DNA of 63,871 nucleotides, the filler included, from Neolecta irregularis DAH-3 (taxonomy: Eukaryota): the NCBI GenBank assembly GCA_001929475.1. It is 13 parts of 13 records of this genome, joined end to end, with 100 filler letters (N's around TTAATTAATTAA, not from the genome) between each part and the next. Parts side by side here need not be neighbours in the genome. Positions count along the whole stretch, not along the records: positions 33,996 to 45,254 come from LXFE01000917.1; 12 more parts are not named here. The stretch is one strand, 5' to 3'. The position numbers were made by a program, and so were the translations under genes. The notes beneath the pieces are model-generated. The model saw only the letters and a program-made list of their open reading frames with translations, was not told where the DNA came from and made no database searches. Shown here piece after piece: positions 31,901 to 54,822 of this stretch. Numbering within the stretch: position 1 is the first letter of the stretch; every line of letters starts with the position of its first letter.

Positions 31901-32036
31901 GCTCCTTTTACTCTTTATTAGAATTCTGTCTTTAGTNNNNNNNNNNNNNNNNNNNNNNNNNNNNNNNNNNNNNNNNNNNNTTAATTAATTAANNNNNNNN
32001 NNNNNNNNNNNNNNNNNNNNNNNNNNNNNNNNNNNN

Positions 32037-33449: not shown

Positions 33450-33995
33450 CCTCGTTCCTTGGAGACTTGATTAATAAAAGAGGAAAAGAGAAAACGCCGA
33501 ACTCTTAAAAGAAAACCAGCCTGACATATTGGGACTTCCGGATTGGGAGATCATCGTTTCCGGGCAATCCAGATCCCACCCGTACCCTCTAATCCAAGCG
33601 CAAGCGGCAATACTTTTCTGGATTGCAGCGGCAATGCTTCCAAGAGACGCACCTCAATGGGCAGAATACATTGTCTCATTATTCAAATCATAAGCCTTCC
33701 GGATGCTGGGGTTGCTAATAATCATTTGATCAATAATGTACTGGTTCGGCTTGATCGGCTTGGACGCATATGGATACATTTTCTGAGTTAGGATTCTTAC
33801 TACCTTTTCGGGATTGGGAACTTGGTTAAGTATGCGCAGACTTGCTAACAAGTAAGCAAGTCCAATTCTGGACTTTGGACTTGCTTGCTTGCATANNNNN
33901 NNNNNNNNNNNNNNNNNNNNNNNNNNNNNNNNNNNNNNNTTAATTAATTAANNNNNNNNNNNNNNNNNNNNNNNNNNNNNNNNNNNNNNNNNNNN

Positions 33996-34384
33996 TGGCG
34001 CCCATCGAGGCGGTGAGCGCGGTCAAGGCGCGGCAGGCGCGGGAGGCGCGGGAGGCGGATAGCGGGAGGGATGGGAGAAATGGGAGGGATGGCGGTATCG
34101 GCGGGAGAGATGGGAGAGATGGGAGGGATGGGAGAGATGGGAGGATCTTTGAGAGAGATGGGATCTCTGGATCTACCGCCCGCCTGGGCATCGACTGCCT
34201 GCAGCGCGGCAGCAACGGTTCCGTCCCCGCCGCGCTCCGCTGACCGGCAGACATGCGCGAGGCCTTTGTCATCGACCCGCTGATCGGCAAGCGCCAGCAG
34301 CTGCTGCTGGCCACGCAGCTGTGCCGCATGGTGCTCAAGGTCAACGATGTCATTGTTGCAGGCCGCGGTGACGATGCCTATTAG
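33996..34384 (+). CDS. CCT5: Chaperonin CCT epsilon subunit, C-terminus
   Basis: [47 protein letters not shown]. Confidence 0.92.
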
Positions 34385-34419
34385 CAGTCTACACAGCTTG
34401 TCTGACCTCGATCTCCCTC

Positions 34420-34700
34420 TGATATACTCTCCCTCTGCTTCTCGCATCTCTACTCTCAGCATCTCTCTACTCTTCTCCCTACTCTATCTCCCTCTGCTCC
34501 TCTGATCTCTGTTCTCTGTTCTCCCTACTCTATCTCCCTCTGCTCCTCTGTTCTCTGTTCTCCCTCCATCTCCCTACTCTCTCCCTACTCACCCGCAGCC
34601 GCCGCCCTCATGTCGGTCTATAGCCGCCCTCATGTCGGTCTATAGCCTCATGTCGGTTTATATCCCTCATGTGCGGTTATAGCCTCGTGCGGCTATATTT
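34420..34700. repeat. CT-rich low complexity tract followed by degenerate cctcatgtcggtctatag tandem repeats
   Basis: Visible ctccctactc/ctctgttct repeats and 4-5 copies of an 18-22 bp unit. Confidence 0.85.
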
Positions 34701-34903
34701 ACACGTTCGCAGCTCGCGCGTGACTCGTCAGGTGTGCCCCCAAGCTCCATATAGCCGCCGGCCCTGCCCGAACCCCCCGTGCTTTTCTCGCCGCATCCTC
34801 GTTTCTTCCTCTTTCTTCCTCGTTCCTCCCACTCTCCCTCTGCTCTCCCCTACTGTCCCGTCTCTCACTCTCCTCTCCCTCTACTCTCCCCTGCTGTCCA
34901 GGC

Positions 34904-36303
34904 ATGCCTACTGCTCTCGCCGATCCCGTCCTCTCCCTCGCCGTCAACAACATCCACAAAATAGATGCAATAAACGCAGAGTGCCTCTCCAGCATGTGGA
35001 CCGGTACTGCCCTCCACCATCCCTCTAACTCCCAGTCTTCACAAAGTGCAAGGAAAACCTCGAAAACGGCCGCCGCCTCGAAAACCTGTCCTGGCGCCTC
35101 TGGTTCCGCGAGTCGCTGTCCTTTGACCTGCCCCCCGTCCTGCCCACAGACATCCTCCACCGCAACATCCTTCTCCCAGACCTCTCCTCTTCTGTAGACT
35201 CGGAAGACTCGGTCGCCGACATCCGCTCCGTTGACAACCCTCCCGCCACCCGCCCTCCCGCCCCCACAAGAACTCTCTCCTCCAGATCCAGGCATCTCAC
35301 CCCGGATCGCTTCCAGCGCCTCATCTCCGCTCTCGCCCCGCACTCCAGCGGTCCAGAGCGCTGGAAAGAGTTCAGACTCGACCACCCTGCAGTCTTTTCC
35401 GCCCCCGTAGAAAAAACAACAACCGTCGCGAAACCCTGTGCTCTCTCCCCCGCAGTCGATCTGCACCCCTCCTCCTCCTGTCCCCATGAAGCCTCCCAGC
35501 CCGTACAGCGCGCTTCAACCGCCGGCGCAACCAGGCCCCACGGCAGTGTCATCCACGGCTTTCAAATCATCCCCTCAGCCCCAACAGACATTCCCGCTCT
35601 CTCGCAGACCGCTGCTTTCTACCTCGGCGCTTCCTCATCGCCCCCAAACAACTCGGCTACCCCAAAAGCTTGTCCACCCTTGTCCCGCGTCTCCACTTTT
35701 GCAGACTTGATTGGCCCGCCTCAACCCCCCGTCGCTCTCGACACCACTGCCGAGGAGACCGATGATGAATGGGACTCTATATATACCTCCAGCGGCAATT
35801 CCAGCCCCACCGAGACCCAAATGTTTCCCAAAGTCGAAGGGCGTCCCCCTCTAGCCTCTAATCGCTCACTCCTCTCCTGCCTCCTCGAGAGCAAGACTTG
35901 CACCGCCAAGTCTAGCGCTGCTTTGTCGCGACTCGCAACACCTGACCCGTCACCCCGAAAAGTTACTGCTATTCTAAAAACAGCCCCTCTTCGTTCCCTC
36001 TTTCGTAAATCTTCTGCTTCAGCTCTTTCCGCGGCTTCTGCGAATGCCGCCCTTCAGATTTCTGCATCTCCCAGGACTACCCGGCGCAACATGCTCGCCA
36101 CAGAGCTCTCGGAAAGTCTTCGACGAAACTTGCTGTGGGAACGCCAACAAAAAACTATGACTTCGGCGGCCGTTCTCAAGCGACGTTACACAAGTACAGA
36201 CATTTCCAACCTAAGCGAGTTTCCAAACCCCAATTCTTTGTCCCCGGTATCGACCGGTTTTGACCAGGCTGATCATCACGAATACCATGCGGTCGGTTGG
36301 TAG
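34904..36303 (+). CDS. DUF1752 + DUF3295 fungal regulatory protein
   Basis: LSSMWTVFTKCKENLENGRRLENLSWRLW; SPRTTRRNMLATELSESLRRNLLWERQQK; YHAVGW*. Confidence 0.88.
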
Positions 36304-36478
36304 TATGCAAAATTGGTTTTTCTATCATTTGGGCACCTTATTTTTATTTGCGGCGTTCACATGCTTTATCATATACCAATGCCTTGATTAAATTGTACAG
36401 TCTTATTCTTCAAAGGGAATAAGCAATCAAGCTCTTATGTACAGTATGATGTTTAATTGACTACAAAAGGAAACCTGT

Positions 36479-38794
36479 CTAGAAGGCAAATAGACATCGG
36501 CTGTGAAGTACCCTGCTGCCGAGTAAATCCCACTCTACCTGGCCGATCCACATTTCAGTTGCTATTTTCAATTTACTTGTAACTGATCCGCCTTTCCACG
36601 CCAAGATCGTCGGGTCCATTTCGCGTGGTGGAGGCACTACCTGGATGTATGACGAATTCAGCATTGTTTGTAATCTAAAATGTAACTACTATGTTTGCAG
36701 ACAAGTGTACCTTGTTTCCAGCAGACGCGGAAACCCCGGCGCCATGCCACTTCCTCCAACAACAATAATCGACTCGTATAACCTGTTTAAGCGTTCCATA
36801 TTATTCACCGAAGCAAACTGAATACTTTGTGCAACAGCAACATCGACCGGGATAATCGGATATTCGGGCGACGTTGTCGGGGAGTCGGTTAGAGGTATGC
36901 CCAAGGGCTGTGTAACCACGGGTGTCAATTCGCGCTCAGGCGAGCCTCTCATTGAAGAGGCCGGCGTAAAAGTAACGCTAGCTGCCGCAGGTTGCTTGGC
37001 TGGGCTTGATTCTGTATTTGAAAGTGCAGCTACTACTGCTTTGCCAAGTAGCTTGTTTTGTGCAAGAGACTTGCTATCAGCACAACCCAACCAATTACAT
37101 ACTTCAGGTTCGTTCGTCGTATTATCGTATATATCTTGAGATATAGGAAACAGGGTATTCTTGTACGGAAGAATCTGCCCTCGCTCAAAACTCTGTGGGA
37201 AGAAAGGAGACTGTCAATGAGACACCATTCAACATGTAGTTACCATAGGCGCCATGATAACCTCGTCGTAGACTTTAAAAGTAAACTTTCGAGTAGCCTC
37301 TCCAGGCGCTCGAACAAAGAATTGGTACAGGTTGATGGCAATTTGACCTTCATTTGTCGTACAAAACTTTAGTTTCAATTCTTCGACAAGGAGCCAATCA
37401 TGCGATTGATTTAAATTGACAGACGAATACGGAAACGATGACCGGAGAAGCAACTTTGTGAAAAGTTCAGTGATATCGTCGCCGCCGTATTTCATATCAA
37501 TACTGTAAATGTAAGCGGATCAAGCCAGATCGATACCGAGAATCAGAAATACACATTCCTTCGTCAACGCATGAAATCGACGTCTTTTGGGCGCCAATGT
37601 CAACTACACACGCCGACGAGATTCCCGCTCCAAAAGTAACACTCACCGATTCCTGTTGTATGCATACCCTCGACAATCCAATTTCTCGCAACAGTAAATG
37701 AATAAGCTCGATTATACAAGTCCGGTCATATAAATCTGGGATGATTAGGACGGCCGAGTATTGACTGATGTCTCGTAATTTAATCAACAGTTCATCTTCA
37801 ATTGATTTTTCCAAAATTAAGCGAATGTCGCCGAGTAACGAGCGTCGGGTTTTGTAATCTTGTTCATTAAAGGAGCCGTGCTTGTACGGCCAAAATAGTT
37901 TGTATTCGGCATTATTTGACGGTAGCGAGAGCGCCTTTATCAGTGCGAATACAAGTTCCAACACACCTTTTGGCCAATGACATAGCTGGGCTTGTTGGAC
38001 ACATCCGTCCATTCTACTCGGTTTGGATCATTGTGGTCGGGAATCACCTCCACTTCTGATCGTTTATTGTAGCCAGCAGCTAGTTCGCGTGCATTCGGCA
38101 CAGAACGACGCTTTGCGGATCGTAAAAGAGATTTTACTTCGCCATCGAGAAGTGATACTATGGCTTCAAACTACCTTTCAGTAACGACGCTGGACGACTC
38201 ACTGATTCTCCAAACATTCCCTCTGGATTGTCCGGGTTGATTCTTTTAGGCACAATTTCACTGTCTTTAGGGTCCGTGTTTGGATCTACGCGCCGCGCAA
38301 TGACATTCGGCACAGTCTTGGGAAATGCATCGGAAGCAAGTCCAATTCGAAGATTTCTCGATCCAGGATGTATCACAATAATTCGCGAGCCAGCTTGCTC
38401 ATTCACAGTAGACTAGAGTTTCAACAAGGTATAAAAGTTGGGATACATCTTCGTCATCTTCATCTTCCATCGGCAAATCGTCTTGCACAGATTTCGCAAC
38501 GTCCTGGTTTCCTTCAGTCTTTTTAGCCTTTCGGGCATTCTCCTCGGCCAAATCAGCGAGAATCTTCCTGTTGACCCAAAACTAGAATCGTTTAGATGCC
38601 AGGTGCATCACAAAGGTACCTGGTCATCTTTCTTTAGATATTCTCTATACGGGTCAAGACGCAGGTGAAACAAACAATACCTACGTGTAGTAGTTTTTCT
38701 GGTTAATAGCTGGTATCGCAGGGACCGAAGTAAAACAATAATCATCTGGATTGTACTCGGGCCCGTCCAAGTTGATTTTTTTCTTGGGTGGCAT
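36479..38794 (-). CDS. ARP8: Actin-related protein 8 (INO80 complex)
   Basis: INQKNYYTEYLKKDDQ, IVIHPGSRNLRIGLASDAFP, ACVVDIGAQKTSISCVDEG, PPPREMDPTILAWKGG. Confidence 0.95.
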
Positions 38795-38988
38795 AATCTA
38801 GTGTAGTATCCAACGACTGCATTAATGAATCGATTTCTCACGTGATACATCCAACGGAGGCAAGACTTACAAATATGAAAATATACAGGATGCATCAGTG
38901 TGGTTTCAAGTAGCCATAACCAGCTTCCTATTACCTCGAATCTTATCAATCCTTTCGCCAGTCTCAATTTACAGCCTGTATATTAGGC

Positions 38989-39640
38989 ATGCGTCGCGTG
39001 AGCGGCAATGTAGGACGTTTTGGACAGAGACTGGTGAACACACGCTCTCTGCACGACAGAAAATCTTCAACAAAATTTTACGATTGTATGGGTTAAGATG
39101 TAATGACCTGATTTTCAAGTACTCCTTGAACAACCAGTTCTACCGAACGCGCACTTGAATAAAGATCAACAAGGGGACGACCGCAAGATTAGATTTTCTT
39201 CAAGGATGGATACACCGCCAAGTGTTCAAAAATCGAAGCAGGAATGGATTGAACTAGCGGATGGAATCAGAATCCCTGCCAAGCCTGAACCCCCTGACAA
39301 CTGCTGCATGTCGTGTGTTTTTGTTTCAAATAGGCTTGTTGCTGATGGTTTATAGTGGCTGCATGAAATGCGTTTGGGTTCTTTATCAGCAGGAAGTAGA
39401 TGAATGGATGGCCGCCATCGAAAATGCCAAGCATCAACTTGACGCTCTAGAAAAACCTGATCATCCTGGCACGCTAAAATCACGACAATTGTTGAGCAGG
39501 CAAGAGGACACGGCAGCCAGTATCGATCCCGGTTTGTCCTGATAAATGGGAGGGTATCTAAACTAGCAGGAATCCGCGCCTTTGTGACTTTAGAGAGATC
39601 GCTGGAATGGAAACGTGCCAGACGACTCGAGAATAATTAA
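38989..39640 (+). CDS. Mitochondrial oxidoreductase-like-domain protein (OXLD1/UPF0651)
   Basis: Arg-rich presequence; [35 protein letters not shown]. Confidence 0.85.
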
Positions 39641-39776
39641 AGAGGGGAGAGTGTAACGTATGATGAAAATAAGGGCAAGGAAACTTGCATCATTCAATGA
39701 CCCTCCCCTCCTCCAATGACGACAATCAAGCTATACGGCAAATGCCCGTTTCCGATTTCATCCGATCCTCAATTCT

Positions 39777-39784
39777 ATATAAAG
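39777..39784 (+). promoter_or_regulatory. TATA box of CipC-like gene
   Basis: TATATAAA about 35 nt upstream of the ATG at 39816. Confidence 0.55.
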
Positions 39785-39815
39785 CCCCTCTTACACCCAC
39801 GTCTCATCATCCAAC

Positions 39816-40260
39816 ATGTTCGGTTTTGACGAATCCAAAGAGCAGTACGAAAAAGTTTACAACAGCAACCACAAAGGAAACTTCACGCACGAGGTTCTCG
39901 CAGGTGCCGTTTCTTTTGAAGCGTTGAAGGCATTTGAAAATAAACAACGAAACAAGGGTATATCGATATCATGTAGAATACTAAGACTTAGGTGAAATTG
40001 TAAAGCACGCAATGGCAAAGGAAATTATTGCTGGATTTGCCGGAGCCGAAGCTGACAAGTTGTTCGAGTCCAAGGGCTTGGATTACCTTGATCGGTACGT
40101 TGATTATATCTCATGTTGACAAGTTAGTGAAATGGTCAAGAAGAAGGCGTCGGACAATGCCAAGAAGATGTACGAGTCTCATTATGAGTCCCAAGGGGAT
40201 GTCTATGATCCAAGTAGACATGCCGCGCCTTCTCAAATGGAGCAGTACAGAAGCTGGTAG
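39816..40260 (+). CDS. CipC-like protein (DUF3759)
   Basis: MFGFDE...HKGNFTHEVLAGAVSFEALKAFE...HAMAKEIIAGFAGAEADKLFESKGLD. Confidence 0.9.
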
Positions 40261-40288
40261 ATAGCGCAATACCGCCCAAGTAGTATAT

Positions 40289-40444
40289 ATGAAAAGCTTG
40301 TTTTTATACGTCCATGTGATAAATAGTAGTTCATCTATGAAAAGCATGGTTATACTTTTGATAAATTAGAATGACATGAAAAACATGGTTACGTCCGATA
40401 AATTAGTATGACATGAAAAGCATGGTTATACGTCCGATAAATTA
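40289..40444. repeat. Tandem repeat of a 37-39 bp unit (atgaaaagcatggttatacgtccgataaattag)
   Basis: Three clear copies from 40337 plus a degenerate upstream copy. Confidence 0.85.
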
Positions 40445-40481
40445 TTGTGAGATCAATCGATTAAAATCAATGCATAAATAA

Positions 40482-40553
40482 GGGTGCGTTCGCCAGCCAC
40501 TATTTTAACCCAAATATGACGTAATATTCCATATTCCATACGTTCGGCGCCAC
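40482..40553 (+). mobile_element. PIF/Harbinger-type terminal inverted repeat (orphan left end)
   Basis: TAA|GGGTGCGTTCGCCAGCCAC matches TIRs of 47924-48529; subterminal cgttcggcgccac at 40541. Confidence 0.7.
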
Positions 40554-41419
40554 AATTATTCCAATTTCATTTAAGAAACTAACAAAGATTGCAGCTATGA
40601 CAGGTCAAGAACCTCAAAGCTTTCCTAGCAGAGTTAATGCTCTTGTACATGCAGGATTAATGTACACTATTGAGTCTCTGCAATTTGACTGAAATTCCAG
40701 TCGAAAGGAAAAGTGTATTGCGGACGGAGCCAAAACCTTTCGTTATATCCCTCTCATATTATTCTTGCAACAGGTCAAAATGGCCAACCCATTATCCGCT
40801 ACATACCAGGTATTGAAGATTTTGAAGGCATTGTACACCATTCAAATCGACATACCACGGGAAAGATTTTTCCTGGAAGAAGGCTGTGGTAGTTGGATCC
40901 GTTAATTCGTAAGAAACTATTGACTAGACAAAGCTTTATGGTAGAGCGCATGACATAGCACAAGATTTTTACGAGCATGGAGCAGATACCACCATGATTC
41001 AAAGGTTAAGTACGCTGGTTGTAACCCTACAGTACGATCTACAAAGGCATATTTGATGGATGTAAGCATTTCCTGTCACAAAAGGCGAAACTGATAAATC
41101 AGCTGGTCCAACAACTGATGGACATTTCGTTAGCCGTTGTATGTTGCACAGGCTCACCAAAATTGTAATCATTGGATTAATGATGTGCCAAACGTTAGCA
41201 TTTTGTATTTCGTTTCAAGATTATTCTTGATCTGTGAAAGAACCATATGCAATGAGAATAGTATAGAGGATAGAGATTTTCCGATTATTTTTCCTGGTGC
41301 TATCTGATATCTGATATATCTGCTAGCGCAGACAAAATTACGAGATTGGTTCATATACTCTCAGGTAGAGCTTACCATTACGGAAGGAAGGCTTGTAATA
41401 ATATTCCGGCATTTTAAAT

Positions 41420-41565
41420 TGTATTATATAAAGTAGGTAGGCGTTCATTAGCCATTACCTAGCAAAGTTCAGTCACTTAGGCTAGGTATGTCCACGCGAA
41501 GTTCAGTCACTTGGGCTAGTATAATAAAACCTGGTCTTATTCGAACTCGAGCTTCAACACTTACA
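41420..41565 (+). mobile_element. LTR-like segment
   Basis: TGTA...TACA boundaries, TATA-like tatataaa, AATAAA, internal aagttcagtcactt repeat; similar 3' ends at 4648-4710 and 62831-62896; no TSD seen. Confidence 0.5.
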
Positions 41566-41657
41566 GGGTGAGACGGGAGAGCGAGGCGGGCGGGTGAGCG
41601 GGAGAGCGAGGCGGGCGGGTGAGCGGGAGAGCGAGGCGGGAGAGCGAGCAGGAGAGG
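41566..41657. repeat. Purine-rich minisatellite (gggtgagcgggagagcgaggc units)
   Basis: About three tandem copies; related GA/G-rich tracts at 42590-42800, 49420-49590, 50295-50700. Confidence 0.85.
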
Positions 41658-42192
41658 CGACCTACTAGTCAGTGCAGATGCAATCATCCGACTCACATCC
41701 GCTTCAGGGCCGACCAAGTACGAGAACCATTTCACCTAGAATGGTAGCCGGAAAGATGGTGAAGACCTGGTATTGAACAATTAGCCCTTGTAAAGGCAGT
41801 TTCAAGTTGGTTAAAGGGTCAGACATAGAGGACGCCACAAGCTGTGGGCGCCCTCCCAGTCCAAGACTTCTGATCCCCATGTGGAAAGTGTTCCACAGGG
41901 ACCAGTCAGATGATCTGACAGTGGCGCGCAAGGATGGGTATTTAGGCAGCGACAATTAATACCAACGGTTGTTACTATTAACGACCCTTGGCTACTAGAC
42001 GACCTAAAGACTCGCAGAGTACAGACCATAGCGGTCAGATACTCACAATGAGACTACACGTTGTCGGGAGAATGATATCCCATGAGACGGCATCCAAAAT
42101 CGTTAAAGTATCAAAAGGCCTGTTGTTTGTTTTTGCTGGATTAGTCGTCCTTGCCTCAGTTGCATGGTTCATACTTCCAAGTTGTACTTCGT

Positions 42193-42554
42193 GTATCGAG
42201 AGTACGGATCCTGCAAGTGAAGGTATATCGTGATAGTTCAATTACCAACGAAAGGTGTAGAAATAGATGTAACGGGTTGGTCGGAAGACCTATTTAGAGA
42301 ATTTTTGGAAAAAGTACATCCGGTATCAATCTCATTCGCTTTACTATGGCTGATATCCGTTAGCAGTTTCAAAGTATCGAGAGTACGGATCCTACAAGTG
42401 AAGGTATATCGTGATAGTTCTATTACCAACGAAAGATGTAGAAATAGATGTATCGGGTTGGTCGGAAGACCTATTGAGAGAATGGATGGAAAAAGTACAT
42501 CCGGTATCAATCTCATTCGCTTTACTATGGCTGATATTCGTTAGCAGTATCAAA
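42193..42554 (+). repeat. 181-bp tandem duplication within a decayed membrane-protein fragment
   Basis: Units start at 42193 and 42374 (gtatcgagagtacggatcct...ttagcagt), each containing an intron-like gtatca...ttag segment. Confidence 0.9.
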
Positions 42555-42814
42555 ATCGAGAACTTCGAAGATAAGGATGAGTATATTAATGGGTGAGGAG
42601 AGGGCAGTAACAGGCAAGGAGGGTGGAGCCATAACGGGCAAGGAGGACGGGCGAGGTGGGCAGGGCTGGGCGAGGAGGGCGGGGCGATAACGGCCAAGGA
42701 CGGTAGAGCAATAACGGGCGAAGAGGATGGGGCAATAACGGCCAAGGAGGGCAGCGCGATAACGGGAGAGGAGGGCGGGTCGGGATCAGGAGGGCGAGCG
42801 GCAGTTTGCATTTA

Positions 42815-43810
42815 GCCCTTAATGTTTCAAGACTTTGACGAACCACGGACTCAAGATCGGCAATCATCTCAACGTGGGTATCTTGAGCTCGCCCTTGAGC
42901 GCAGTAGTCTGCAGCTTCAAGATCCATACTAATGACCAAGCTCGCGAGCGATGGTTGAGGTGACCCGGGTGCTAACGTCTGCACCATGAACATTCAATTG
43001 TATTGGGGAGTTAGATTGCTGTTGACTCCACCCAACTTTTTATTGATTTTTAGAAAAAGATTACAAGCAAATTGCAGGGAAGCCTATCAGATCAGCCATG
43101 TGTTCAATCTATTGAGCAGAGGTACCTTCAAAACATTTCTTGTCAGAGCAACTTGGCACATAACTCCAAGGTCTATATCACAAGATCCCTTGATTCTATT
43201 ATACAGTTCAGTATTTCTAAAGGAGTAAAGGGAAAGAAAGAAATCAACAGAGGCCTTTTTGCCTGATCTTTGCCATGCAGAATTGCCGATGTTGTGTAGA
43301 ACAGTCGTAATATTTGTCTGTGCGTTTGCGTTTTCAATGATGGGAGATGTAACGTTAAATATCATGCCGCTCTCTCGGCCGCAGGGAGTCAACTAGTCAA
43401 CAAATCGACAGAGTTGTTCTGCGTTGCAATGACGTTGACTGTCGAGGATTACAATAGCCCAGTTATTTATGACTTTAGGCTAGATTGATGAGGATAACTC
43501 AAGGGCTGTAGGAACATACTTTGATGAATCTGATATGTTTGAGATCCCATTGTACATTATCCCGGATCTGGGCGCATTTGTTGCCAAACTGGACGTCAGG
43601 TTTGGGTAAAAGTCGTCCCTGGACAGAGATCATTTTCGTGTCGACCTGCAAGCCGTAGTGGCGAAGCATGGAGTTTTTAGATCGATCGATCAATCAAGTG
43701 AGTCGACATTTCTAGAAATCTGGGCTTTTCGATCATTAGGCCTCATTGCTGCGACTTTAATTAAAGTGCTTGTGATATCCTGGGCAAGAACTCCATTGTA
43801 GCGTTGACCC
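42815..43810 (-). pseudogene. Argonaute fragment (L2-MID-start of PIWI), disrupted
   Basis: GQRY, YGLQVDTKMISVQGRLLPKP, YNRIK...LGVMCQ, NLFLKINKKLGGVN, out-of-frame GADVS, PSLASLVISMD; introns retained; stops and frameshifts. Confidence 0.88.
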
Positions 43811-44599
43811 TAAGCTTACAGTCTTCACATCCAAGAATTATACGGGATGCATGATGCAGAACTCAAGAGGAAAAATAGATAGGCGAGGAAGTGGAGCGTG
43901 ACAGAGGACGGGGGTAGAGGCGGTAGAGGGGAGACCAGCGAGGCAGTGTACAGCGACACAGGAGAGGCGTCAGTAGCCTGCAGGCAATACCCGGTGAGCA
44001 GTGCGCAGACGAAACGGTGGTACTCGAAGATACGGCGGTCAGCAGGCACCAGCGGCTCCGGCAGAAACGGCTGGCAACCGCCCGGTGCTTGTAGAGCTCG
44101 AAGCGGCCATCGGAGGAGTGCTTACGCCTTGCCGGAGCGGGCGAGGTCTGTAGTTCGGGCGACCAGGTGCGCGAAACCGTAGTGCTGTGACTACGGGTGA
44201 GCCAGGCGGCTGTACGCAGCGCAGCTCGGGCGGCAGAAGACGGTGGCATGAGAAGGGCTCGCGGACGAGCACGGTAACGCAGAGCCCGCGTCTGCCTGGA
44301 TGTCTTCGCTGAGGGCCCGAGCGATATCACGCGGAGAAGCGACGGGGATGAAGAAAGCTGCCCAGAGGCGAAGAGCGACGGTTCAACAACGCCGGATCCT
44401 GCAGGAGCGCGCTGGGTGACAATGAGAGGAGGGATGAAAAGAAAGGGGAGGGTGGATCGGGGGAGGAGGCATCCGAGCAGATATAGTTTAGCAGGTCTGG
44501 GTGGTCGCCGTGGAGAAGCAAAGGCCGTAGTCGTGGGGGCAGGCAAAGTCCTGGGGGGCTTGAGATAGCAGCGGCTTGGTTCCTCAAGGTAGCCCTGCA

Positions 44600-44860
44600 T
44601 GTGCAGCAGGAGATTGAAGGCGAGAAGGAAATCGGAGTTGAATAGCACGCCTAGGACTCCTGTGCGCTGCCAGCCGTAGGTGTACTTTGACGACGTCTTT
44701 CTGCTCCAGGCAAGCTTTACAGCGTACAGCCCCTTGATGAATGAGAAAAACTCATTGATCATGCCAAATGAATTGGCAACCAGCGACAGGGAAGGGATCA
44801 TGTAGCCATAGATGATCTCAAACCCAAAGGAAACCAAGTCAATGGCCAGCAGGGTGGTGA
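44600..44860 (-). pseudogene. CDF zinc transporter (Zrc1/Cot1-like) N-terminal fragment
   Basis: FEIIYGY..SLSLVANSFGMINE...YTYGWQRTGVLGVLFN versus consensus SLALVADSFHMLND...YTYGWQRAE.LGAL.N. Confidence 0.8.
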
Positions 44861-45048
44861 TGTGGGTGGACCACAAAAGAGGCAACCACTGGGTGGGCCA
44901 AGTCCACTGAGTCCTCATACCACACTGGTATTTGGTCATTCTTGGTTGACTTGCATATAGAGTAAATCATTTACATACAGGTAGCTTATAGGTTGTGTAT
45001 ATACTTACACTAAGAGGTGGTCAGTTGCACTGTTTATCAGTCTATTAT

Positions 45049-45254
45049 TGTAAGCACTCCAAGGATCTGGGCAATCAGGTTACACAGGGCGATCGTGTTA
45101 CACGGTGGCGATTGGGTTACACGAATGGACTGGGTGGATCTGGAGTAACACTCAGAACTGGGATGCTAGCAAGCAACAATAAACAAGTCTACTATCTCAG
45201 TAGTTACAAAGTGAGAATAGTTAGGTATGGTGGTTAGCAAGCTATTTAAATAAG
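45049..45254 (-). mobile_element. LTR-like 3' half, truncated by gap
   Basis: On minus strand: tatttaaatagc TATA-like box, internal gtgtaac repeats, ends ...gcttaca. Confidence 0.45.
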
Positions 45255-45354
45255 NNNNNNNNNNNNNNNNNNNNNNNNNNNNNNNNNNNNNNNNNNNNTT
45301 AATTAATTAANNNNNNNNNNNNNNNNNNNNNNNNNNNNNNNNNNNNNNNNNNNN

Positions 45355-45452
45355 TGACATGTACTACAAGGCTTGTTTTTATCACATTTTGTCTTTCTTT
45401 GGCGGCATTTCTGACATGCAATCACGGTGCGAGTGCCAATTGGGGAGATCAT
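45355..45452 (-). CDS. Zn(II)2Cys6 transcription factor, N-terminus only
   Basis: MISPIGTRTVIACQKCRQRKTKCDKNKPCSTC then gap. Confidence 0.8.
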
Positions 45453-46338
45453 AGTTTTGAAAGACAGAGATGGGACGACGGTGGCGGATATTGAAAGAAG
45501 AGATGGACTATTGGAACGAAATTTTGGTTTCCTAGTATTATCATTGTTAGCTTTGGTTCTAACGGTCTGGGTCGAGAAACGAACAATATCTAACCTCAAA
45601 GTGGAAACCTGCTCCATAGGTTATTGTTGCGAATTCTCTTTTAGGAATTGTTCGGCTTCGGTCTGTTGAACACAAAAGCTAAGATCGTATGCGCTAATCG
45701 CAATGGTATGACCCGAATTTCTGGCAAATTGAAACTGGGATTAGATTGATACCTAGGACATACTTAGTGCTGATAGTATCTTATATCAGATAGATGCGCA
45801 ATCGCCATGTTCATTTCCACCAACTTAGAAAAATTTCAATTTAGTGTCAGAGGTTACTCATAAGTGGATTGATTAAATATCAAGTATTCAGAGATTCCAA
45901 TCATCCCTTACGGTCCCTATGCGTGTAGAAAGCCGTCAGTTTAGTGTCAGAGGTAGCTTATAAGTGAATCGATTAGATATTCATGCAGAAGACCGATATT
46001 CCAACCGTCCCTTACCGTCCCAACTCGCGCCAGAATGCGGTTGACAAATTCGTTGCTGCCTTTTATCAATTGATCTTCAAATGCAAGGTAGAGATAAACT
46101 ATGGCGCCCTTAGCGATTCCTTCATATTTGATTTTGGTGTGCGCTCCTTATTAGTTCGTGTCAATTTTGTATCTTTCAAATTTATTTGCTGAAGCCACTT
46201 CTTGACCAGGCCATGAATGGTCTCAGGGAAAATTTGACGCTGGCTAGAATCCACTAGACAAGGGCCTAAATTTCCGCTTTACTCGTATTTACAATTGCGA
46301 GAATTTGGGGATTTCCAGATAAATGGCGTACTGCAATA

Positions 46339-46470
46339 CAGTGATGGCAACAGCGTTCCTAACCGACTGGACCAAATAGACCGTCCAAGTAGACCAGACC
46401 AGACCGGCAATAATTTTGGTCCAGACGGACCAGACCAAAGGTCAAAGTCGGTCTGGACGGTCTGATAGAC
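46339..46470 (+). mobile_element. hAT-like element left end with subterminal GACCA repeats
   Basis: CAGTGATGGCAA terminus resembling other CAGTG ends; clustered agaccagacc/ggtctgg motifs. Confidence 0.55.
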
Positions 46471-46793
46471 TTAATAATTCATATACATAGTTAATAGTTA
46501 AGAATAAATAGTAGAAGAGAAAGGGTACTTGGTTAAGGGAATCTTGTAGGAGCGAGGCAAATTGAAGTTGGCTTTAGCAGTGAAGAAAATCTCAAAATTG
46601 GTAGTGGCGGTGGTAGTGGTGGTGGGGGTGGCGGTAGTAGGAGTAGTGGTAGTAGCGGTACCTTGATCTATATTGCACCTCTTTGACTTCAGGNNNNNNN
46701 NNNNNNNNNNNNNNNNNNNNNNNNNNNNNNNNNNNNNTTAATTAATTAANNNNNNNNNNNNNNNNNNNNNNNNNNNNNNNNNNNNNNNNNNNN

Positions 46794-47306
46794 GCATGCA
46801 TCCTTGACGGATGTGAACCAATGCGAACGGCATGGCGGGCAATTCCGTCAACCTATAACAAACATCGATACAGGATGAGATCTTCATTGGATGAATTGGT
46901 GAATACATTTTAGCAGAGTTTAAGTAACTGCTAGTACTCAATTCAATCTCCTTCCAAGTATCAACAGGAGGCAATCAATATTATCGCAAAACTTGCAGCT
47001 GCAGAGGGTTGTTCAATAGCTTTGGCAAAAACGAAACTTTTAGACGCACTGCGACCTCTTGGATATTCAGCAAAACAATTGACAAAAGGGCTCAAGGTTA
47101 TCCCTTGGTCAAAACCCAATGATGCATCATTAATACTTCATACCGCTAAAATCTTCAAGTCTACACCAGAATTGTCCACTCCTTTGTTAGAGCACCAAAC
47201 TGTTCGCGAACAATCAGCATCTGTAGCAACAAATCACTATGCGAACGTTGTCCGCCATAGTGGAAATGAAAAGCAGCAGGAACAAGTATTTACACCACCT
47301 TTCTGA
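46794..47306 (+). CDS. Hypothetical protein, 3' part
   Basis: Open frame CILDGCEPMRTAW...DEL joined by a 36-nt gtgaat...ctag intron to YSIQSPSKYQQEA...FTPPF*. Confidence 0.4.
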
Positions 47307-47923
47307 AATTATCAAATGGAAAACGGATAGTCGAACCAAGTTCTTGCTCCCATCATACTTTCACACCGATATTCCCTAATAAGATAGCCAAATGTTGAGT
47401 ATACATCAAATGTAAATATTTGGCAAAACATAATCAACAAAATATATTTTACAAAAGAGTAGTCTATAATTTCCAGATCCTCAAGCGAATAATAGAGTTA
47501 GGGTTAGGGTTAACAAATCGAGATCAGCGCAACTTGACCCGAACAGAGGAACCAAGATCAAAAATCAGGAAGGTGGCCCGTTCCCTTAATGACTCAGGAG
47601 TTCACCGTACGGGCAGGAGGGGCGTCGCTCGGGGTCCCAGCCATTACCACACATAATTTAGACAGAACAAGTACGATCGATGTTATACAGACTAGGGCGT
47701 TCATGTTTGAGTATTTGAAATCAAGAAACAACTCCAGTTTCCGTCCCTTTTATCACCTTTTTAGGCACCTCTATGATCGGAACGATCTTGCATTTTCATC
47801 CGGATTTGGTAGCTGGATCCTAATTAGGCATGTGGTTAGTTGGAGGCGTTCTTCCAAACTCTTCCGAAATAACCCAAAGAAGGCATCGGTACCCTCCACA
47901 TTCTCTACTAGTGTGAAATGTAA

Positions 47924-48529
47924 GGGTGCGTTCGCAGCCACAAGATTGACCCACTGCACCAAAGCAAGTTCACATAAAGACAACGTAGCAGATACTGAGT
48001 TCCAATACCTTTGTCGAAACGAGAAAGAGCATCGCACCAATTTATTCATGTAACTGAGATCAGTTTAAGAATCTGTCGCACGGCCAACGTAATACAGTCG
48101 AACCTGCTAATAACGAATGCGGCGTTCAAGGGTTAAATTCATTATAAATTCGTTCTGTCTGACATAAATATTCCTCGTACTAATTAATTTTGAAAACCAG
48201 AGTCCATTATCAGTAATAAACGACGAGTCGTCAACCACTGTCGCTCCATTTGCAGCGTTTATAAGATCATCATGTCTCCGTTTTGCTGTGGTCATATTGG
48301 GAAGAGTAAGAGTACCTTCCGTTGCCGGGTGTAATGCTGCACGGTGGATTGCTAACCAGTCCATCAACCCAGGCGCCGCATCTTGCCGGTGAGGATATGG
48401 ACGAGCAGCATCCACAAGCACTTTTGCGAGCCAAAGTTGCGATGAATGATTGACGTATTGGTTTGAAGTACGATATCCCCTGTTTTAGAAAATGGAGATA
48501 TTCTTTTTGTGTGGCTGGCGAACGCAGCC
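47924..48529. mobile_element. Non-autonomous PIF/Harbinger-type element, 606 bp
   Basis: TIRs GGGTGCGTTCGC-AGCCAC / GTGGCTGGCGAACGCAGCC flanked on both sides by TAA. Confidence 0.85.
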
Positions 48530-48666
48530 TAAACTAGTTTGATATTCAAAAGTTTTAAACTTGTTGGATTAACTCCCAAAACTCCTTGGCAACTGAATCC
48601 ATATCACTTCTTTAACAAAGTGTAACAAGAGGAAGTGGTCAAGTGGGAGAGAGGGGTGAGGGCAAG

Positions 48667-48828
48667 CAGTGTTGGGGATGGACCGCGCCAGTGGCTTGGT
48701 CCTAGCACCCATGGGCATTAATAGGAAGTGTGATCAGGGCAGTTGCCTAAGCTGCCTGCTGGCCCATTGTCAATTCAGGCCCATGGGCGCTACGCCCAAG
48801 CCACTGGCGCGGTCCATCCCCAACACTG
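48667..48828. mobile_element. hAT-type MITE, 162 bp
   Basis: Perfect 33-bp TIR CAGTGTTGGGGATGGACCGCGCCAGTGGCTTGG; 8-bp TSD AGGGCAAG at 48659-48666 and 48829-48836. Confidence 0.95.
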
Positions 48829-48899
48829 AGGGCAAGCAGGTGTATGGCATCTGTGGAGGGCAAGGATCAAATGGCAGAATGGCTGGAGGAGGTGGGTAT

Positions 48900-49358
48900 A
48901 GCAGGGTTGGGGTTGGTGTTGGTGTAGCACAGAGGATGGGCGTGGGAGAGGCGACGGGAGGAGAGGTCTGGGCGGGGGCCTCGGGGAGGAGTTGGGAGTC
49001 TTGAGAGCGGTGCCTGTGGCCTGGCCGACCTGGACATAGCTAAAGGCATTGGTCTCGTTGCCGCACATGTCTGAGGGATAGCCGGGACATGGCCGGGAGC
49101 AATCTTCAACGGGCTGCGCAGGGCGGGAAACAGGATGTAGCACCAGCACTGCGGGCCCTAGATGATCGCAAAGGCCTCGGCGATGCAGGTCTGGGTGCAG
49201 GCCCCAACGGACTGGAAGACGGAGAATGAGGCATTTCCGGTGGACGTGTTTTGCGAGGAGCAGAAGGGGAAGTACTCGGCGCCCAGGGGCAGCGCCGCAG
49301 CGGCTGGAAGAGTAGCAGGAGGACAGTGGGCGGGTGCATCGGACGGACGGCAAGCGTA
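48900..49358 (-). pseudogene. WSC-domain (Wsc1-like sensor) gene fragment
   Basis: FCSSQNT...FQSVGACTQTC...FAII*GPQCWC then frameshift to CSRPCPGYPSDMCG; Ser/Thr/Pro tail. Confidence 0.8.
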
Positions 49359-49419
49359 AGTTGTTGAACCTAATCCTTAACGGTCTGGTGGTGAGCAGCC
49401 ACGCAAAGCGAGATAGGTG

Positions 49420-49682
49420 CGCGAGGCGGGAGAGACGGGCGGGTAAGAATGGAGAAGCGGGCGAGGTAGGAGCGAGAGGTGGAAACGGGCATGCCGCGTC
49501 TGGAGGGCGAGATAGGAGAGGCCGGCGAGACGCGCTGACGAGGCAGGTAGGCAGGCAGTAAGGGAGTAGACATGGGAGGAGAAGGGCTGCATAGTATTAT
49601 TTAGTATCACTTGAAAAAGCCCGTTTCGGCCCATCGGCCGATGGGCCGGGCTTTTAATGGGTCGGGCTCATTGCCAACACTG
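49420..49682 (+). mobile_element. hAT-like element right end with GA-rich interior
   Basis: Ends ...ttgccaacactg; subterminal GGCCC/GGGCC motifs; 49486-49604 block repeated at 50581-50713. Confidence 0.7.
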
Positions 49683-49778
49683 GACCTGTCAAACATTGAA
49701 TAATTGGTTGAAATCTAAAGTCTGTTTCTTGAACGGACTATCCATTCATGTATGCTTGACAGCTGGCCATGGTAGTTC

Positions 49779-49879
49779 GTCTTCATGGTGTAGTTGGGAG
49801 CATGCCAGACTGAAGTGTCTGTTCTCTTGAACGGTTATTTGCAATCTGTTGGTCGCTGGTTCGAACCCGGCTGAGGACA
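49779..49879 (+). tRNA. tRNA-Phe(GAA) with 28-nt intron (49816-49843)
   Basis: Acceptor GTCTTCA/TGAGGAC, D-arm TGGTGTAGTTGGGAGCAT, anticodon GAA 49812-49814, GGTTCGAACC B box, downstream T7 terminator. Confidence 0.93.
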
Positions 49880-50197
49880 GCTTTTTTTCTCTTATCCTTC
49901 TTTTTAGCAGGATAGATGGATGTTTATATTGAGTAGGCTACTTTGATCGAACAGGCGGATTGTGAATAAAAGAGTAAAGTATTTCATATACAGGTGGATA
50001 GGGATTTTTTATGCCACGTGTCAATGTCACATGTACATAAAATGGTTCCAAATCATTGATGCCAACGATGAAAGTACTCTAGCATTTGCGCAAAAGGGTT
50101 AGAAGTGACCCAGTAAGATTGATTAATGATATCCAGTGGATGTTTATTTTCCCATTTGAGTAAGAGAGATTGAAATATAATGCATCCCACACCCAAG

Positions 50198-50713
50198 CAG
50201 TGTTGCAAATGGACCAAAGTCTGGTCCATGGACTTCTCGGAGGGTAGGCCCAATCCATGGACTGGTCAAATGACTACCATTTTCCTGATAAGAGGAGAGA
50301 TGGGCGGGCGAGGCATGTGAGGTGGGTGGAATGGGCTGGAGACGGGCGAGACAGGAGCTCGAGATGGGAGGGGGGCGCGAGATTGGTGCTTGAGACTGGA
50401 AGGACGGGCGAGACGGACAAGCGGGACGGGCGGGACAGGAAGGAGGGACGGGCGAGACGGACAAGCGGGACGGGCGGGACAGGAAGGAGGGACGGGCGGG
50501 ACAGGAAGGAGGGACGGGTGGGATGGGAAGGAGGGACGGGTGGGATGGGAAGGAGGGACGGGTGGGATGNNNNNNNNNNGACGGGCATGCCGCGTCTGGA
50601 GGGCGAGATAGGAGAGGCCGGCGAGACGCGCTGACGAGGCGGGCAGGCGAGGCAGGTAGGCAGGCAGTAAGGGAGTAGACATGGGAGGAGAAGGGCTGCA
50701 TAGTATTATTTAG
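50198..50713 (+). mobile_element. hAT-like element left end with purine-rich minisatellite interior, truncated by gap
   Basis: CAGTGTTGCAAATGGACC terminus, ccatggac subterminal repeats, gggacgggcgggacaggaagga units, shares about 120 bp with 49486-49604. Confidence 0.7.
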
Positions 50714-50813
50714 NNNNNNNNNNNNNNNNNNNNNNNNNNNNNNNNNNNNNNNNNNNNTTAATTAATTAANNNNNNNNNNNNNNNNNNNNNNNNNNNNNNN
50801 NNNNNNNNNNNNN

Positions 50814-54158: not shown

Positions 54159-54822
54159 TGCGCTTAGAGTAGGATATAGAAATGTATAGACGAGGAATAG
54201 CATTGTGATTAGTCTGAACTAGACCCTCCCCTCACTATGCCAGTCTGGTCTGGTCTACTTAACATGCCGCCCATTGATAAGCCATGGAATCATCATTTCC
54301 GCGAGAAGTGTCTGGTACGGTCCGCTTATGGGTATGAAGTTGGGATTTAAACATTCATCTGATGTTCTCTAGTATCAAGAGTAATGCAAACACGCCTCAC
54401 AATCCCGATTTCTACCAGCTCAAGAAGTAGCTAATGCCAGACATATAGGATGTACTTCATCTGACAATATTGTAGGTAATTCAATGTATTTTCAGTTTAA
54501 TGACTACTTCCCACCTTCCAAACAAATAAGGGTTATCAGAGGATTCTCGTCCAATCTACCCAACCACTCTCCATCCTTATCAACTTCACTAATCGCCATC
54601 AAACTCCCTGATCTGGCTGGCCCAGAAGTTACAGGCGTAAGGATATGCTATTCTATTCCAGTTTTCTTGAGACTTCCTTGTGCATGCAACAGTATCAAAA
54701 AGATGCCATATTACAGATCCCANNNNNNNNNNNNNNNNNNNNNNNNNNNNNNNNNNNNNNNNNNNNTTAATTAATTAANNNNNNNNNNNNNNNNNNNNNN
54801 NNNNNNNNNNNNNNNNNNNNNN

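Follow-up and report, generated by a model that had tools for sequence, protein, structure and literature searches.

Gene fragments, including a piece of an Argonaute gene, in the repeat-rich end of a short Neolecta irregularis contig

The right end of an 11,259-bp contig of Neolecta irregularis DAH-3 is, in our judgment, probably a decayed and rearranged copy of dispersed repeat DNA that holds captured gene scraps and lies at the edge of gene space. It contains an unprocessed piece of an Argonaute gene and the 5′ part of a zinc transporter gene, among other unrelated pieces (Table 1). The contig belongs to a window of 63,871 nucleotides, the whole stretch of DNA analyzed here, in which 13 small contigs are chained by artificial linkers (N44-TTAATTAATTAA-N44). 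The contig is a real assembly contig with a linker on each side, and position 45254, at the right end of the mosaic, is where the contig stops and a linker begins. The earlier note had described a gene-fragment mosaic. A patchwork of unrelated pieces at the DNA level was indeed found, but matching LTRs do not bound it.

Table 1 Features of the contig and of the patchwork at its right end
Feature	Position	Strand	Remarks
Host contig	33996..45254		Left 6.5 kb single-copy gene space, right 4.7 kb repeats
Left high-copy repeat, ~147 bp, TG...CA	41420..41566		From depth; first "LTR-like end" of the earlier note
G-rich minisatellite 1	41567..41660	+	TRF: 25-nt unit, 3.6 copies, score 145, 92% matches
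Sequence without family match, short ORFs on both strands	41661..42192		Made of repeated sub-pieces
Tandem duplication, 181 bp x 2	42193..42561	+	93.7% identical
G-rich minisatellite 2	42587..42804	+	TRF: 24/48-nt unit; adjoins the Argonaute 3′ break
Unprocessed Argonaute pseudogene fragment	42799..43876	-	tblastn with relative P0001, residues 329-657
Purine-rich tract 3	43873..43946	+	At the Argonaute 5′ break
GC-rich (0.58-0.65), G-skewed stretch	43947..44572		Holds purine tract 4 (44403-44481)
5′ fragment of ZnT1/ZnT10/Zrc1-type CDF transporter, decayed	44573..44966	-	Start codon to just past TM3
Right high-copy repeat, cut by the contig end	45008..45254		From depth; second "LTR-like end" of the earlier note

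The contig end and its high-copy repeats

Two contig sets from two sequencing runs of one study, X1 and X2, were compared with the window. X2 is cDNA-like, and its contigs lack 32-43-nt GT..AG/CT..AC introns at 35.0-39.4 kb. Neither set is on record as RNA, and the contigs carry no strand information. Positions 35181-40505 are spanned by one DNA contig with 0 differences at a depth of 396, which is the single-copy reference. The summed contig depth, in which the parent gene is included, is a rough guide and not a copy number; for X1, it is ~1.0k-1.1k at 40388-41139, in comparison with 396 for single-copy genes, 1.7k-4.2k at 41892-43771 (4-10x single copy), and 0.5k-0.75k at 44148-44899. The region of ~40.5-43.8 kb, which includes the Argonaute piece, lies at 2.5-47x single-copy depth. 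X2 covers 30 of 30 bins, with a depth of 46-82 even over the non-genic 40388-41139. Since non-genic DNA is also covered, the 71.5-deep X2 contig at 43720-44876 is no proof of specific transcription.

This X2 contig is colinear with the window with 0 differences, as are three X1 contigs (42692-42876, 43848-44452, and 44479-44824), and the right half of the mosaic is contiguous. The check is not an independent one, since X1 is possibly the assembly's own source data and both runs come from one study. Most of the left half (41349-42691) is covered by none of the 16 contig pieces listed, beside which there are 651 more.

Both flanks of the mosaic are high-copy, with summed depths of 12.9k-23.8k against ~396 for single-copy genes. 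The left repeat reaches 55.9k at 41526, and the bin that holds the right repeat (44900-45254) is at 23.8k. The right edge of the left repeat is sharp, as six X1 and four X2 contigs continue differently past 41565-41567, while its left edge (41420) is placed from bin depths only. The repeat has an internal 34-bp duplication (41449-41516) and sits inside a larger repeated block starting near 40.5 kb; one sibling contig skips 41410-41816. Contigs over the right repeat break at 45008, 45041, and 45048, and an 18-nt tandem at 45069-45123 includes three units containing GTTACAC.

These two repeats had been taken for LTR-like ends facing each other. Each is a high-copy repeat, but their mutual similarity is no better than chance. 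When the left (41400-41566) was aligned with the right (45008-45254) in both orientations, the scores were 16 and 15, and shuffled sequences averaged 16.7-16.8; 202 and 254 of 300 shuffles, respectively, did at least as well. The repeat search gave no pair formed by the two ends. No gag, pol, or transposase family of Pfam was detected in the ORFs scanned (18 and then 58 ORFs; 69 of the 86 ORFs of at least 35 aa were covered). No terminal or internal inverted repeats were found in 40300-45254, the longest inverted pair being 24 nt at 75%, though terminal inverted repeats may sit beyond the contig. There is no target-site duplication at 41420/41566, where the flanking 4-5 nt differ (TAAAT versus GGGTG), and no TGG-type primer site after the left repeat; the purine-rich array beside this repeat lies on the side opposite to the one that a 3′ LTR in + orientation would require. 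A search with the last 14 nt of the left repeat, allowing 3 mismatches, found 8 sites (5.9 expected), and the only exact one is the repeat's own. The sole match to a 20-mer from the same end, metagenome locus L001, was rejected as a chance match with only 21 nt shared. An element bounded by inward-facing LTRs is thus not supported: the ends are unrelated, the right one is truncated where the contig stops, the left one belongs to a larger repeated block, and the ORFs scanned contain no gag/pol.

BLAST of 41000-45254 against the whole window found only the 181-bp tandem and minisatellite self-matches, with no other copy. Rfam (E ≤ 0.1, 40000-45254) gave 0 matches, and ARAGORN (33996-50713) gave 0 genes. 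A second mosaic was sought on six other stretches of the window, using 109 of 126 ORFs of at least 55 aa (the 17 left out overlap a long kinase gene), and only ordinary gene parts were found there: MCM10, an Ire1-type kinase, DDB1/CPSF-type propellers, and Zn-cluster. The ORF scan of the G-rich contig at 46794-50713 found nothing. Among the titles and abstract openings listed for Neolecta with transposable elements or Argonaute, none is on Neolecta repeats or RNA silencing. A term search of the main text of the Neolecta genome paper (PMC5309816) gave no mention of transposons, RNAi, scaffolds, RNA-seq, or Illumina.

Gene fragments and the sequences between them

The Argonaute piece (1.08 kb) runs from the last part of PAZ/L2 through MID to the middle of PIWI, and the MID/PIWI fragment recognized earlier is thereby confirmed, P0001 residues 329-657 running from 43876 down to 42799. 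Pfam ArgoL2 matches at 43499-43693 (E = 4.9e-10; 39.9 bits, cut-off 33.3), and Piwi matches weakly at 42589-42993 (18.1 bits, below the cut-off of 28.9). The alignment with P0001 consists of six in-register blocks of 69-90% amino-acid identity. P0001 is the only close relative, the next best match, from Saitoella, being 38% identical; the sequence comparison suggests that the piece originated within the lineage.

The positions of the lesions in the piece should be noted. An in-exon TAG stop lies at 43395-43393, the frame changes near a GATC repeat at ~43690, and P0001 residues 581-599 are unmatched, including the GADVTH stretch, which we take to carry a catalytic Asp. A functional Argonaute gene was rejected on these grounds together with the partial extent of the match. 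The piece still has introns at 43810-43846, 43480-43519, and 43083-43124, the latter two of which are spliced out in X2 contigs. The presence of such very short introns indicates that the piece was copied as genomic DNA.

A longer, spliced Argonaute copy is present among the cDNA-like X2 contigs. One X2 contig, which lacks the 42-nt intron, matches the piece at ~93% identity (over 43126-43291, 12 of 166 nt differ), and another continues in frame past 42804 into PIWI-like sequence, as translated by hand. Up to three distinct variant contigs were found per Argonaute site, and every aligned contig differs from the window at several of these sites, e.g., 43161 and 43232. The Argonaute piece and the sequence to its left are multi-copy in the genome. 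Comparison of the piece with the X2 copy gave 15 variant codons, 8 synonymous and 7 non-synonymous; at 5 of the 7, the residue of P0001 is present in the X2 copy and has been lost from the piece. Judging from these codons, the piece appears to be under relaxed constraint and to decay like neutral DNA. No RIP-type signature was detected in it: TpA/ApT (0.63) and CpG observed/expected (0.78) are close to the whole-contig values (0.78 and 0.92, respectively). In the same check for RIP or CpG loss, lower values were obtained for two short sequences, the CDF piece (0.39) and the right repeat (0.46).

The CDF zinc transporter fragment of the earlier note also stands. Pfam Cation_efflux (E = 7.8e-13; 49.1 bits) matches residues 40-120 of the ORF at 43866-44966 over profile positions 5-84 of 198. 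Solved ZnT10 and ZnT1 chains match over TM1-3 (query residues 37-127; E = 1.4e-7 and 5.7e-7, respectively), and GC by codon position is 0.41/0.42/0.67. In TM2, DSFHMLSD of ZnT1 is aligned with NSFGMINE, so that the H and D of FHMLSD are replaced by G and E. A functional CDF gene, with six TMs and the TM2 metal site H/D-x3-D, was therefore rejected, the profile match being partial and the metal site lost. No further CDF piece was found in any frame scanned, and a word-based protein search with the piece gave 0 relatives at E ≤ 0.001 among 101 candidates.

The GC-rich stretch between the two gene pieces shows no coding signal, no GC3 periodicity, and no Pfam match, and an Atlas search with its ORF part gave no lead (best score 0.79, recognition 920). 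It probably represents one side of a skewed GC island; a comparable island is present at the left end of the contig, where the skew changes from G to C at ~34396. The order Argonaute/GC-rich/CDF is carried by the single X2 contig at 43720-44876. The GC-rich and CDF parts are near single-copy and hence may not belong to the amplified unit.

Between minisatellite 1 and the tandem duplication (41661-42192), contigs depart from the window at 41779, 41818, and 41951. No ORF there matches a Pfam family at or above the cut-off, including the ORF at 41690-41955 that had been listed as unknown. What had been called a duplicated membrane-protein fragment is a tandem duplication, with a unit length that is not a multiple of 3, but the membrane protein has no relatives: the ORF at 41982-42230 has one hydrophobic stretch, and an exhaustive HMMER search with it gave 0 relatives in 1.84 billion representatives.

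G-rich tracts at the joints

Five G/purine-rich tracts lie in the mosaic (41563-41664, 42587-42684, 42740-42804, 43873-43946, and 44403-44481), all on the + strand. The mosaic holds 5 of the 18 + strand tracts of the window and none of its 8 C-rich tracts. These tracts contain 6 of the 33 G-quadruplex-type motifs of the window, all on +, two of them in minisatellite 1 and three in minisatellite 2. The Argonaute homology ends at 42799-42804, the end of the tract 42740-42804, and begins at ~43876, the start of the tract 43873-43946. The X1 contig at 42692-42876 carries the joint of minisatellite 2 with the Argonaute piece. The claim that purine tracts on the + strand mark the junctions thus holds for both Argonaute ends and for the strand of all tracts, but not for the 3′ end of the CDF piece (~44573), which is ~90 nt away from the nearest purine tract.

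Minisatellite 1 has copy-number variants among the contigs and shares a 14-mer with an array at 49421 on another contig, and arrays with a similar G-rich motif were seen on another contig and also terminate several contigs. Since such minisatellites are common in the window and often at contig ends, they are a genome-wide feature rather than a signature of this locus.

Origin of the patchwork and comparison with known systems

Two unrelated high-copy repeats thus lie at 41420-41566 and from 45008 on, and the assembly broke within the second. A mobile repeat, or one that amplifies in some other way, would have captured the Argonaute piece and multiplied it (transduplication), and the copy described here may have been broken further after the amplification. 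The joints could have been made by break repair at G-rich, quadruplex-prone minisatellites, which may be frequent in the genome within strand-skewed GC islands; repair of this kind in skewed islands would account for the common strand of all the tracts and for the position of both Argonaute breakpoints on tracts. The locus is most likely inert, and no function is needed to explain its structure.

According to PMC6710886, fungal DNA transposons have transduplicated host genes, with histone H3 carried by hAT elements in Pseudocercospora and Pyrenophora, and a silencing gene can be amplified accidentally, as in Zymoseptoria tritici, where a DNA methyltransferase gene has reached tens of copies. 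As in the cases given there, host gene sequence occurs here in several dead copies inside repeat DNA, and as in Zymoseptoria the amplified gene belongs to genome defense. Unlike in those cases, only an internal third of the gene, introns included, is present, no carrier transposon and no RIP-type signature were found, and a related copy is still among the cDNA-like contigs.

The mosaic also shares its retained introns, stop, frameshift, gap, and lost metal site with non-processed pseudogene fragments that lie in DNA rich in repeats or heterochromatic. It differs from usual ones in that both Argonaute breakpoints are exactly on G-rich tracts and all tracts are on the same strand.

Pack-type elements (Pack-MULE and Pack-PIF) string together fragments of several host genes. 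Abutting unrelated gene fragments copied at the DNA level with introns, in multiple copies, are common to them and the mosaic, but here no terminal inverted repeats or target-site duplication were found, and neither the CDF part nor the GC-rich part is far from single copy. An unlikely origin is a cut-and-paste transposon of a non-autonomous kind (Pack-type hAT, Harbinger, or Mutator) with Argonaute cargo, whose ends are outside the region examined or too decayed to be recognized. The multi-copy state of the Argonaute piece and its left neighborhood, the retained introns, which DNA-level capture predicts, and a 162-bp MITE-like palindrome with 56-nt arms on a neighboring contig agree with it; the lack of terminal inverted repeats in 40300-45254 and of a transposase in the ORFs scanned does not. 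When 1 mismatch is allowed, the 9-mer that starts the MITE-like arms, CAGTGTTGG, occurs 13 times (11.5 expected), and none of these sites is in the mosaic contig.

Joining of unrelated repeats by the short-read assembly through common G-rich minisatellites is very unlikely. The joints do lie in low-complexity G-rich arrays, which also terminate several contigs, the contigs listed are short with none over 41349-42691, and all aligned contigs differ from the window at, e.g., 43161 and 43232. However, the Argonaute/GC-rich/CDF order and the joint of minisatellite 2 with the Argonaute piece are each carried by a contig with 0 differences.

A working small-RNA source, in which both-strand transcripts of the Argonaute copies act on the expressed Argonaute as host feedback or counter-defense, is highly doubtful. 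The several copies, the X2 cover of the stretch, and the ~93% nucleotide identity to the spliced copy, which means that small RNAs from the piece could in principle target the X2 copy, are consistent with such a source. A plant precedent is miR820, which is carried in CACTA transposons of rice and targets the host methyltransferase gene OsDRM2 (PMC3459959). In both cases, sequence of a host silencing gene resides in repeat DNA, from which RNA able to act on the gene could arise. However, miR820 has a defined hairpin, and its processing and target regulation have been shown, whereas the mosaic has no inverted duplication able to fold as a hairpin and no sign of selection, the piece decaying as neutral DNA would; moreover, the flanking repeats are mutually unrelated and X2 cover is similar over non-genic DNA. 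We regard as scarcely probable the wider proposal that a dispersed repeat family carries ~1 kb of the host's expressed Argonaute (~93% identical), that its RNA feeds back on Argonaute as a brake on silencing carried by repeats, much like miR820 and OsDRM2 in rice, and that it was built by break repair at quadruplex-prone G-rich minisatellites that preferentially capture stray DNA.

Subtelomeres typically contain gene scraps, minisatellites, and a terminal repeat in very high copy number. A subtelomeric patchwork, with the chromosome end to the right and the G-rich tracts as degenerate telomere-type seeds from break healing, is nevertheless very improbable: the G-rich strand is + in five of five tracts and the three GTTACAC-containing units of the right repeat resemble the fission-yeast telomere unit, but no short-unit telomere-type array occurs anywhere in the window, and the tract units are 24-25 nt and unlike each other. 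Literature matches for a Neolecta telomeric repeat have neither term in the title or abstract.

The result is mainly a correction, in that the window joins unrelated contigs end to end and an apparent gene-capture element with defined bounds is the ragged end, rich in repeats, of one short contig, which we read as probably decayed repeat DNA with captured gene scraps. It also indicates that a piece of Argonaute, a silencing gene, has been multiplied in the Neolecta irregularis genome. If the coincidence of breakpoints with tracts is true across copies, it would tie G-rich minisatellites to DNA breakage and ectopic repair.

Contig frame and the depth of the mosaic

The window is split by 12 identical spacers (44 N, TTAATTAATTAA, 44 N; Table) into 13 contigs, which are unrelated pieces and not a single chromosome segment. 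Since the spacers are artificial, any feature or skew apparently crossing one is an artefact. The mosaic, a patchwork of gene fragments at 41420-45254, is the right end of the contig at 33996-45254 (11,259 bp). A spacer follows directly after position 45254, and therefore any statement on a "right end" refers to a truncated sequence.

Public contigs from two runs of one study, X1 and X2, were aligned over this whole contig. One X1 contig spans 35181-40505 with no differences at a depth of 396, and X1 behaves as genomic DNA. The X2 record is labelled "DNA?". Among the joints listed for X2, 10 within 35.0-39.4 kb excise 32-43 nt with GT..AG or CT..AC ends and are absent from X1, and X2 contains processed transcripts. 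The introns of this contig, as given by the X2 joints, are very short (32-43 nt), in keeping with an origin from Neolecta irregularis. The single X1 contig and the intron-removing joints of X2 mark 34-40.5 kb as normal, expressed gene space. A 37-nt tandem repeat (2.8 copies) lies at 40337-40444, approximately 60-170 bp left of 40505, where the single-copy X1 contig ends and repeated DNA starts.

Variant contigs accumulate rightwards from about 40.5 kb. The summed X1 depth (Table) is not a copy number and serves only to sort repeated, near-single-copy, and very-high-copy parts; by this measure, the mosaic has a repeated left part, GC-rich and cation diffusion facilitator (CDF) parts close to single copy, and flanks of very high copy number on both sides. 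As for contiguity, an X2 contig at 43720-44876 holds the order Argonaute, purine tract, GC-rich stretch, and CDF with no differences, and an X1 contig at 42692-42876 likewise holds the joint between a G-rich minisatellite (42587-42804, + strand) and the Argonaute piece, though both runs come from a single study and the assembly may have been built from X1. None of the 16 pieces listed (of 667) covers 41349-42691, so the order in most of the mosaic's left half is putative. The X2 contig is 1,217 nt long, of which 1,157 nt match 43720-44876 and the terminal 60 nt depart from the window sequence. Read on the minus strand, this break (44876/44877) comes after a pyrimidine run ending in TG and could reflect either a splice acceptor or a different copy.

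Features of the window and summed X1 depth along the mosaic and its left flank
Feature	Position	Strand	Remark
Spacers 1-6	4711-4810, 19282-19381, 29789-29888, 31937-32036, 33896-33995, 45255-45354		N44-TTAATTAATTAA-N44
Spacers 7-12	46694-46793, 50714-50813, 54723-54822, 56688-56787, 58723-58822, 62731-62830		N44-TTAATTAATTAA-N44
DUF3295/GATA_AreA-type gene	35029-36300		Pfam
Actin-like gene	within 34-40.5 kb	-	Pfam
Argonaute block 1	43876-43847	-	80% aa identity to P0001
Argonaute block 2	43809-43693	-	79% aa identity to P0001
Argonaute block 3	43690-43520	-	74% aa identity to P0001, different frame
Argonaute block 4	43479-43126	-	69% aa identity to P0001
Argonaute block 5	43083-42997	-	90% aa identity to P0001
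Argonaute block 6	42972-42799	-	83% aa identity to P0001
Similar-motif G-rich arrays	49408-49589, 50287-50698		on another contig
G-rich arrays near contig ends	19051-19268, 34032-34163, 46599-46660, 50398-50698
Summed X1 depth	40388-41139		1.0-1.1k
Summed X1 depth	41140-41891		12.9-18.8k
Summed X1 depth	41892-43771		1.7-4.2k
Summed X1 depth	43772-44147		1.2k
Summed X1 depth	44148-44899		0.5-0.75k
Summed X1 depth	44900-45254		23.8k

The Argonaute fragment and a longer copy

The earlier note had read the mosaic as unrelated gene pieces strung together, one of them an Argonaute MID/PIWI fragment. The patchwork is real, as given by the Argonaute and CDF matches and a tandem duplication, and the fragment is confirmed. 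Pfam finds ArgoL2 in ORF 43499-43693 (-; E 4.9e-10); its Piwi match in ORF 42589-42993 is weak (-; 18.1 bits, under the cut-off of 28.9). A word search with ORF 43090-43392 returned one protein, P0001 (676 aa, on a 3,680-nt contig), with 74% identity. Residues 340-657 of P0001 as a query gave 14 hits, the closest being a Saitoella protein (38%); Saitoella is in the same subphylum as Neolecta, which also fits that origin. In tblastn, P0001 residues 329-657 align from 43876 down to 42799 in six blocks (Table).

Short introns separate the blocks at 43810-43846, 43480-43519, and 43083-43124, and the X2 joints 43479>43520 and 43082>43125 (CT..AC on the + strand) remove the last two exactly. The piece is an unprocessed DNA-level copy of L2, MID, and half of PIWI; a retrocopy origin is ruled out, since the introns are kept. 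The copy is dead because it has an in-exon TAG (43395-43393), a frame change at a GATC repeat near 43690, and a TGA (42996-42994), and P0001 residues 581-599 are unmatched.

The X2 contig lacking the 42-nt intron has 12 listed differences from the window in 43126-43291 (approximately 93% identity), with 63 further differences across the stretch beyond those listed. A second X2 contig matches the window to 42804 and then diverges, and its loose end, manually translated in the fragment's reading frame, gives more PIWI-like sequence. Applied to the window codons, 17 listed X2 differences, which need not all come from a single X2 contig (depths 353, 159, and 162), alter 15 codons, 8 of them synonymously. 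In five of the seven non-synonymous codons, X2 has the P0001 residue and the fragment differs; of the remaining two, one has the P0001 residue in the fragment and the other has a different residue in each of the three. The codon comparison and the PIWI-like continuation indicate that the cDNA-like contigs hold a longer, better-conserved Argonaute copy, from which the fragment has drifted.

The CDF stub and the flanking repeats

The CDF zinc transporter of the earlier note is reduced to its 5′ part. In a 367-aa ORF (43866-44966, -), the Cation_efflux match (Pfam, E 7.8e-13) is limited to the first third, residues 40-120 corresponding to only 5-84 of the 198 profile positions, and solved ZnT10 and ZnT1 chains align to residues 37-127 (TM1-3). 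"DSFHMLSD" of ZnT1 is aligned to "NSFGMINE", with Gly and Glu at the His and Asp positions. The GC contents by codon position in the CDF piece (44573-44966, -), 0.41/0.42/0.67, have coding-type periodicity. The rest of the ORF has no such periodicity, no Pfam family match, and no Atlas lead, and the word search found no close CDF relative. The CDF piece is a diverged, truncated 5′ stub. Stop codons are scarce in GC-rich DNA, which best accounts for the long ORF that follows the stub; 43600-44800 is GC-rich and G-skewed, and looks like one flank of a strand-skewed GC island.

What had been called a duplicated membrane-protein fragment includes a tandem duplication (42193-42561, 181-bp unit, 93.7% identity between copies), but ORF 41982-42230, with a hydrophobic stretch, has no relative among 1.84 billion representatives. 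Within 41661-41960, contigs diverge at 41779, 41818, and 41951, so this part is itself patched together from repeated sub-pieces. Neither Rfam nor a tRNA scan gave a match over the mosaic.

The proposed frame of inward-facing LTR-like ends is unsupported. The left repeat (41420-41566; TG...CA, approximately 147 bp) and the right repeat, which begins around 45008-45049 and is truncated where the contig stops, have no similarity above chance; no inverted or direct pair linking them was found, nor gag/pol in the ORFs scanned between them with Pfam. The left repeat is genuine and ends sharply on its right side: past 41565-41567, six X1 and four X2 contigs continue unlike the window and differ from each other. 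The summed depth is 55.9k at 41526, and no matching flanking duplication was seen. Since repeated sequence is already present from about 40.5 kb, and 41409 is joined directly to 41817 in one X1 contig, the left repeat looks like part of a larger repeated block, not the mosaic border. In the right repeat, 45069-45123 contains three 18-nt units, each with GTTACAC; this resembles the fission-yeast telomere unit, probably by chance.

G-rich tracts and the nature of the patchwork

Purine tracts had been described at many of the junctions, all on the + strand. Under a fixed definition of a tract (purines 80% or more and G 45% or more per 40-nt window), 18 lie on the + strand of the window and 8 on the other; 41563-44481 holds five of the former, none of the latter, and 6 of the window's 33 quadruplex-type motifs, all on +. 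The Argonaute homology ends at tract borders (42799-42804 and about 43876), as does the left repeat on its right side (41566/41567), but the CDF breakpoint lies elsewhere. Such tracts are not peculiar to the mosaic, since similar arrays occur on another contig, one of the two sharing a 14-mer with the mosaic tracts, and near several contig ends (Table). A GC island at 33996-36400 (GC 0.57-0.66) opens the contig. At about 34396, a short distance upstream of the DUF3295/GATA_AreA-type gene, its GC skew switches sign (+0.21 to -0.44); minisatellites to the left of this point are G-rich and those to the right CT-rich. Given the apparent island flank at 43600-44800, regional skew is a simpler reason for the one-strand bias. 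This flank also suggests that breaks at G-rich arrays may have been repaired with stray DNA.

A MITE-like palindrome of 162 bp (48667-48828) has 56-nt arms, 91% complementary, that start CAGTGTTGG. A 22-mer related to it is present at 50194, and the 9-mer with which the arms begin recurs at 49674 (-). A tRNA gene at 49779-49879 (Rfam 43.8 bits; no call by ARAGORN) probably has an intron, because it is 101 nt long.

No function is indicated, and no hairpin-forming inverted copy was found. X2 covers every bin, with similar depths over the mosaic (71.5) and over non-genic DNA (46-82), and the X1 and X2 contigs are unstranded; a small-RNA role of the mosaic is conceivable at most. Pack-type elements are among the nearest known cases. 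Others are host-gene copies in fungal repeats, described in PMC6710886 as transduplicated (histone H3 in hAT elements) or accidentally amplified (a Zymoseptoria methyltransferase gene). For the speculative small-RNA reading, the nearest case is miR820/OsDRM2 in rice, as outlined in PMC3459959. Titles and abstract openings of the papers listed yielded no publication on repeats or RNA silencing in Neolecta, and a term search of the main text of the Neolecta genome paper (PMC5309816) gave no mention of transposons or RNAi.

Although real, the mosaic is an ordinary patchwork of pseudogene pieces within repeat DNA at the end of a contig. The details worth retaining are the multiplied Argonaute fragment and the breakpoints on G-rich arrays.
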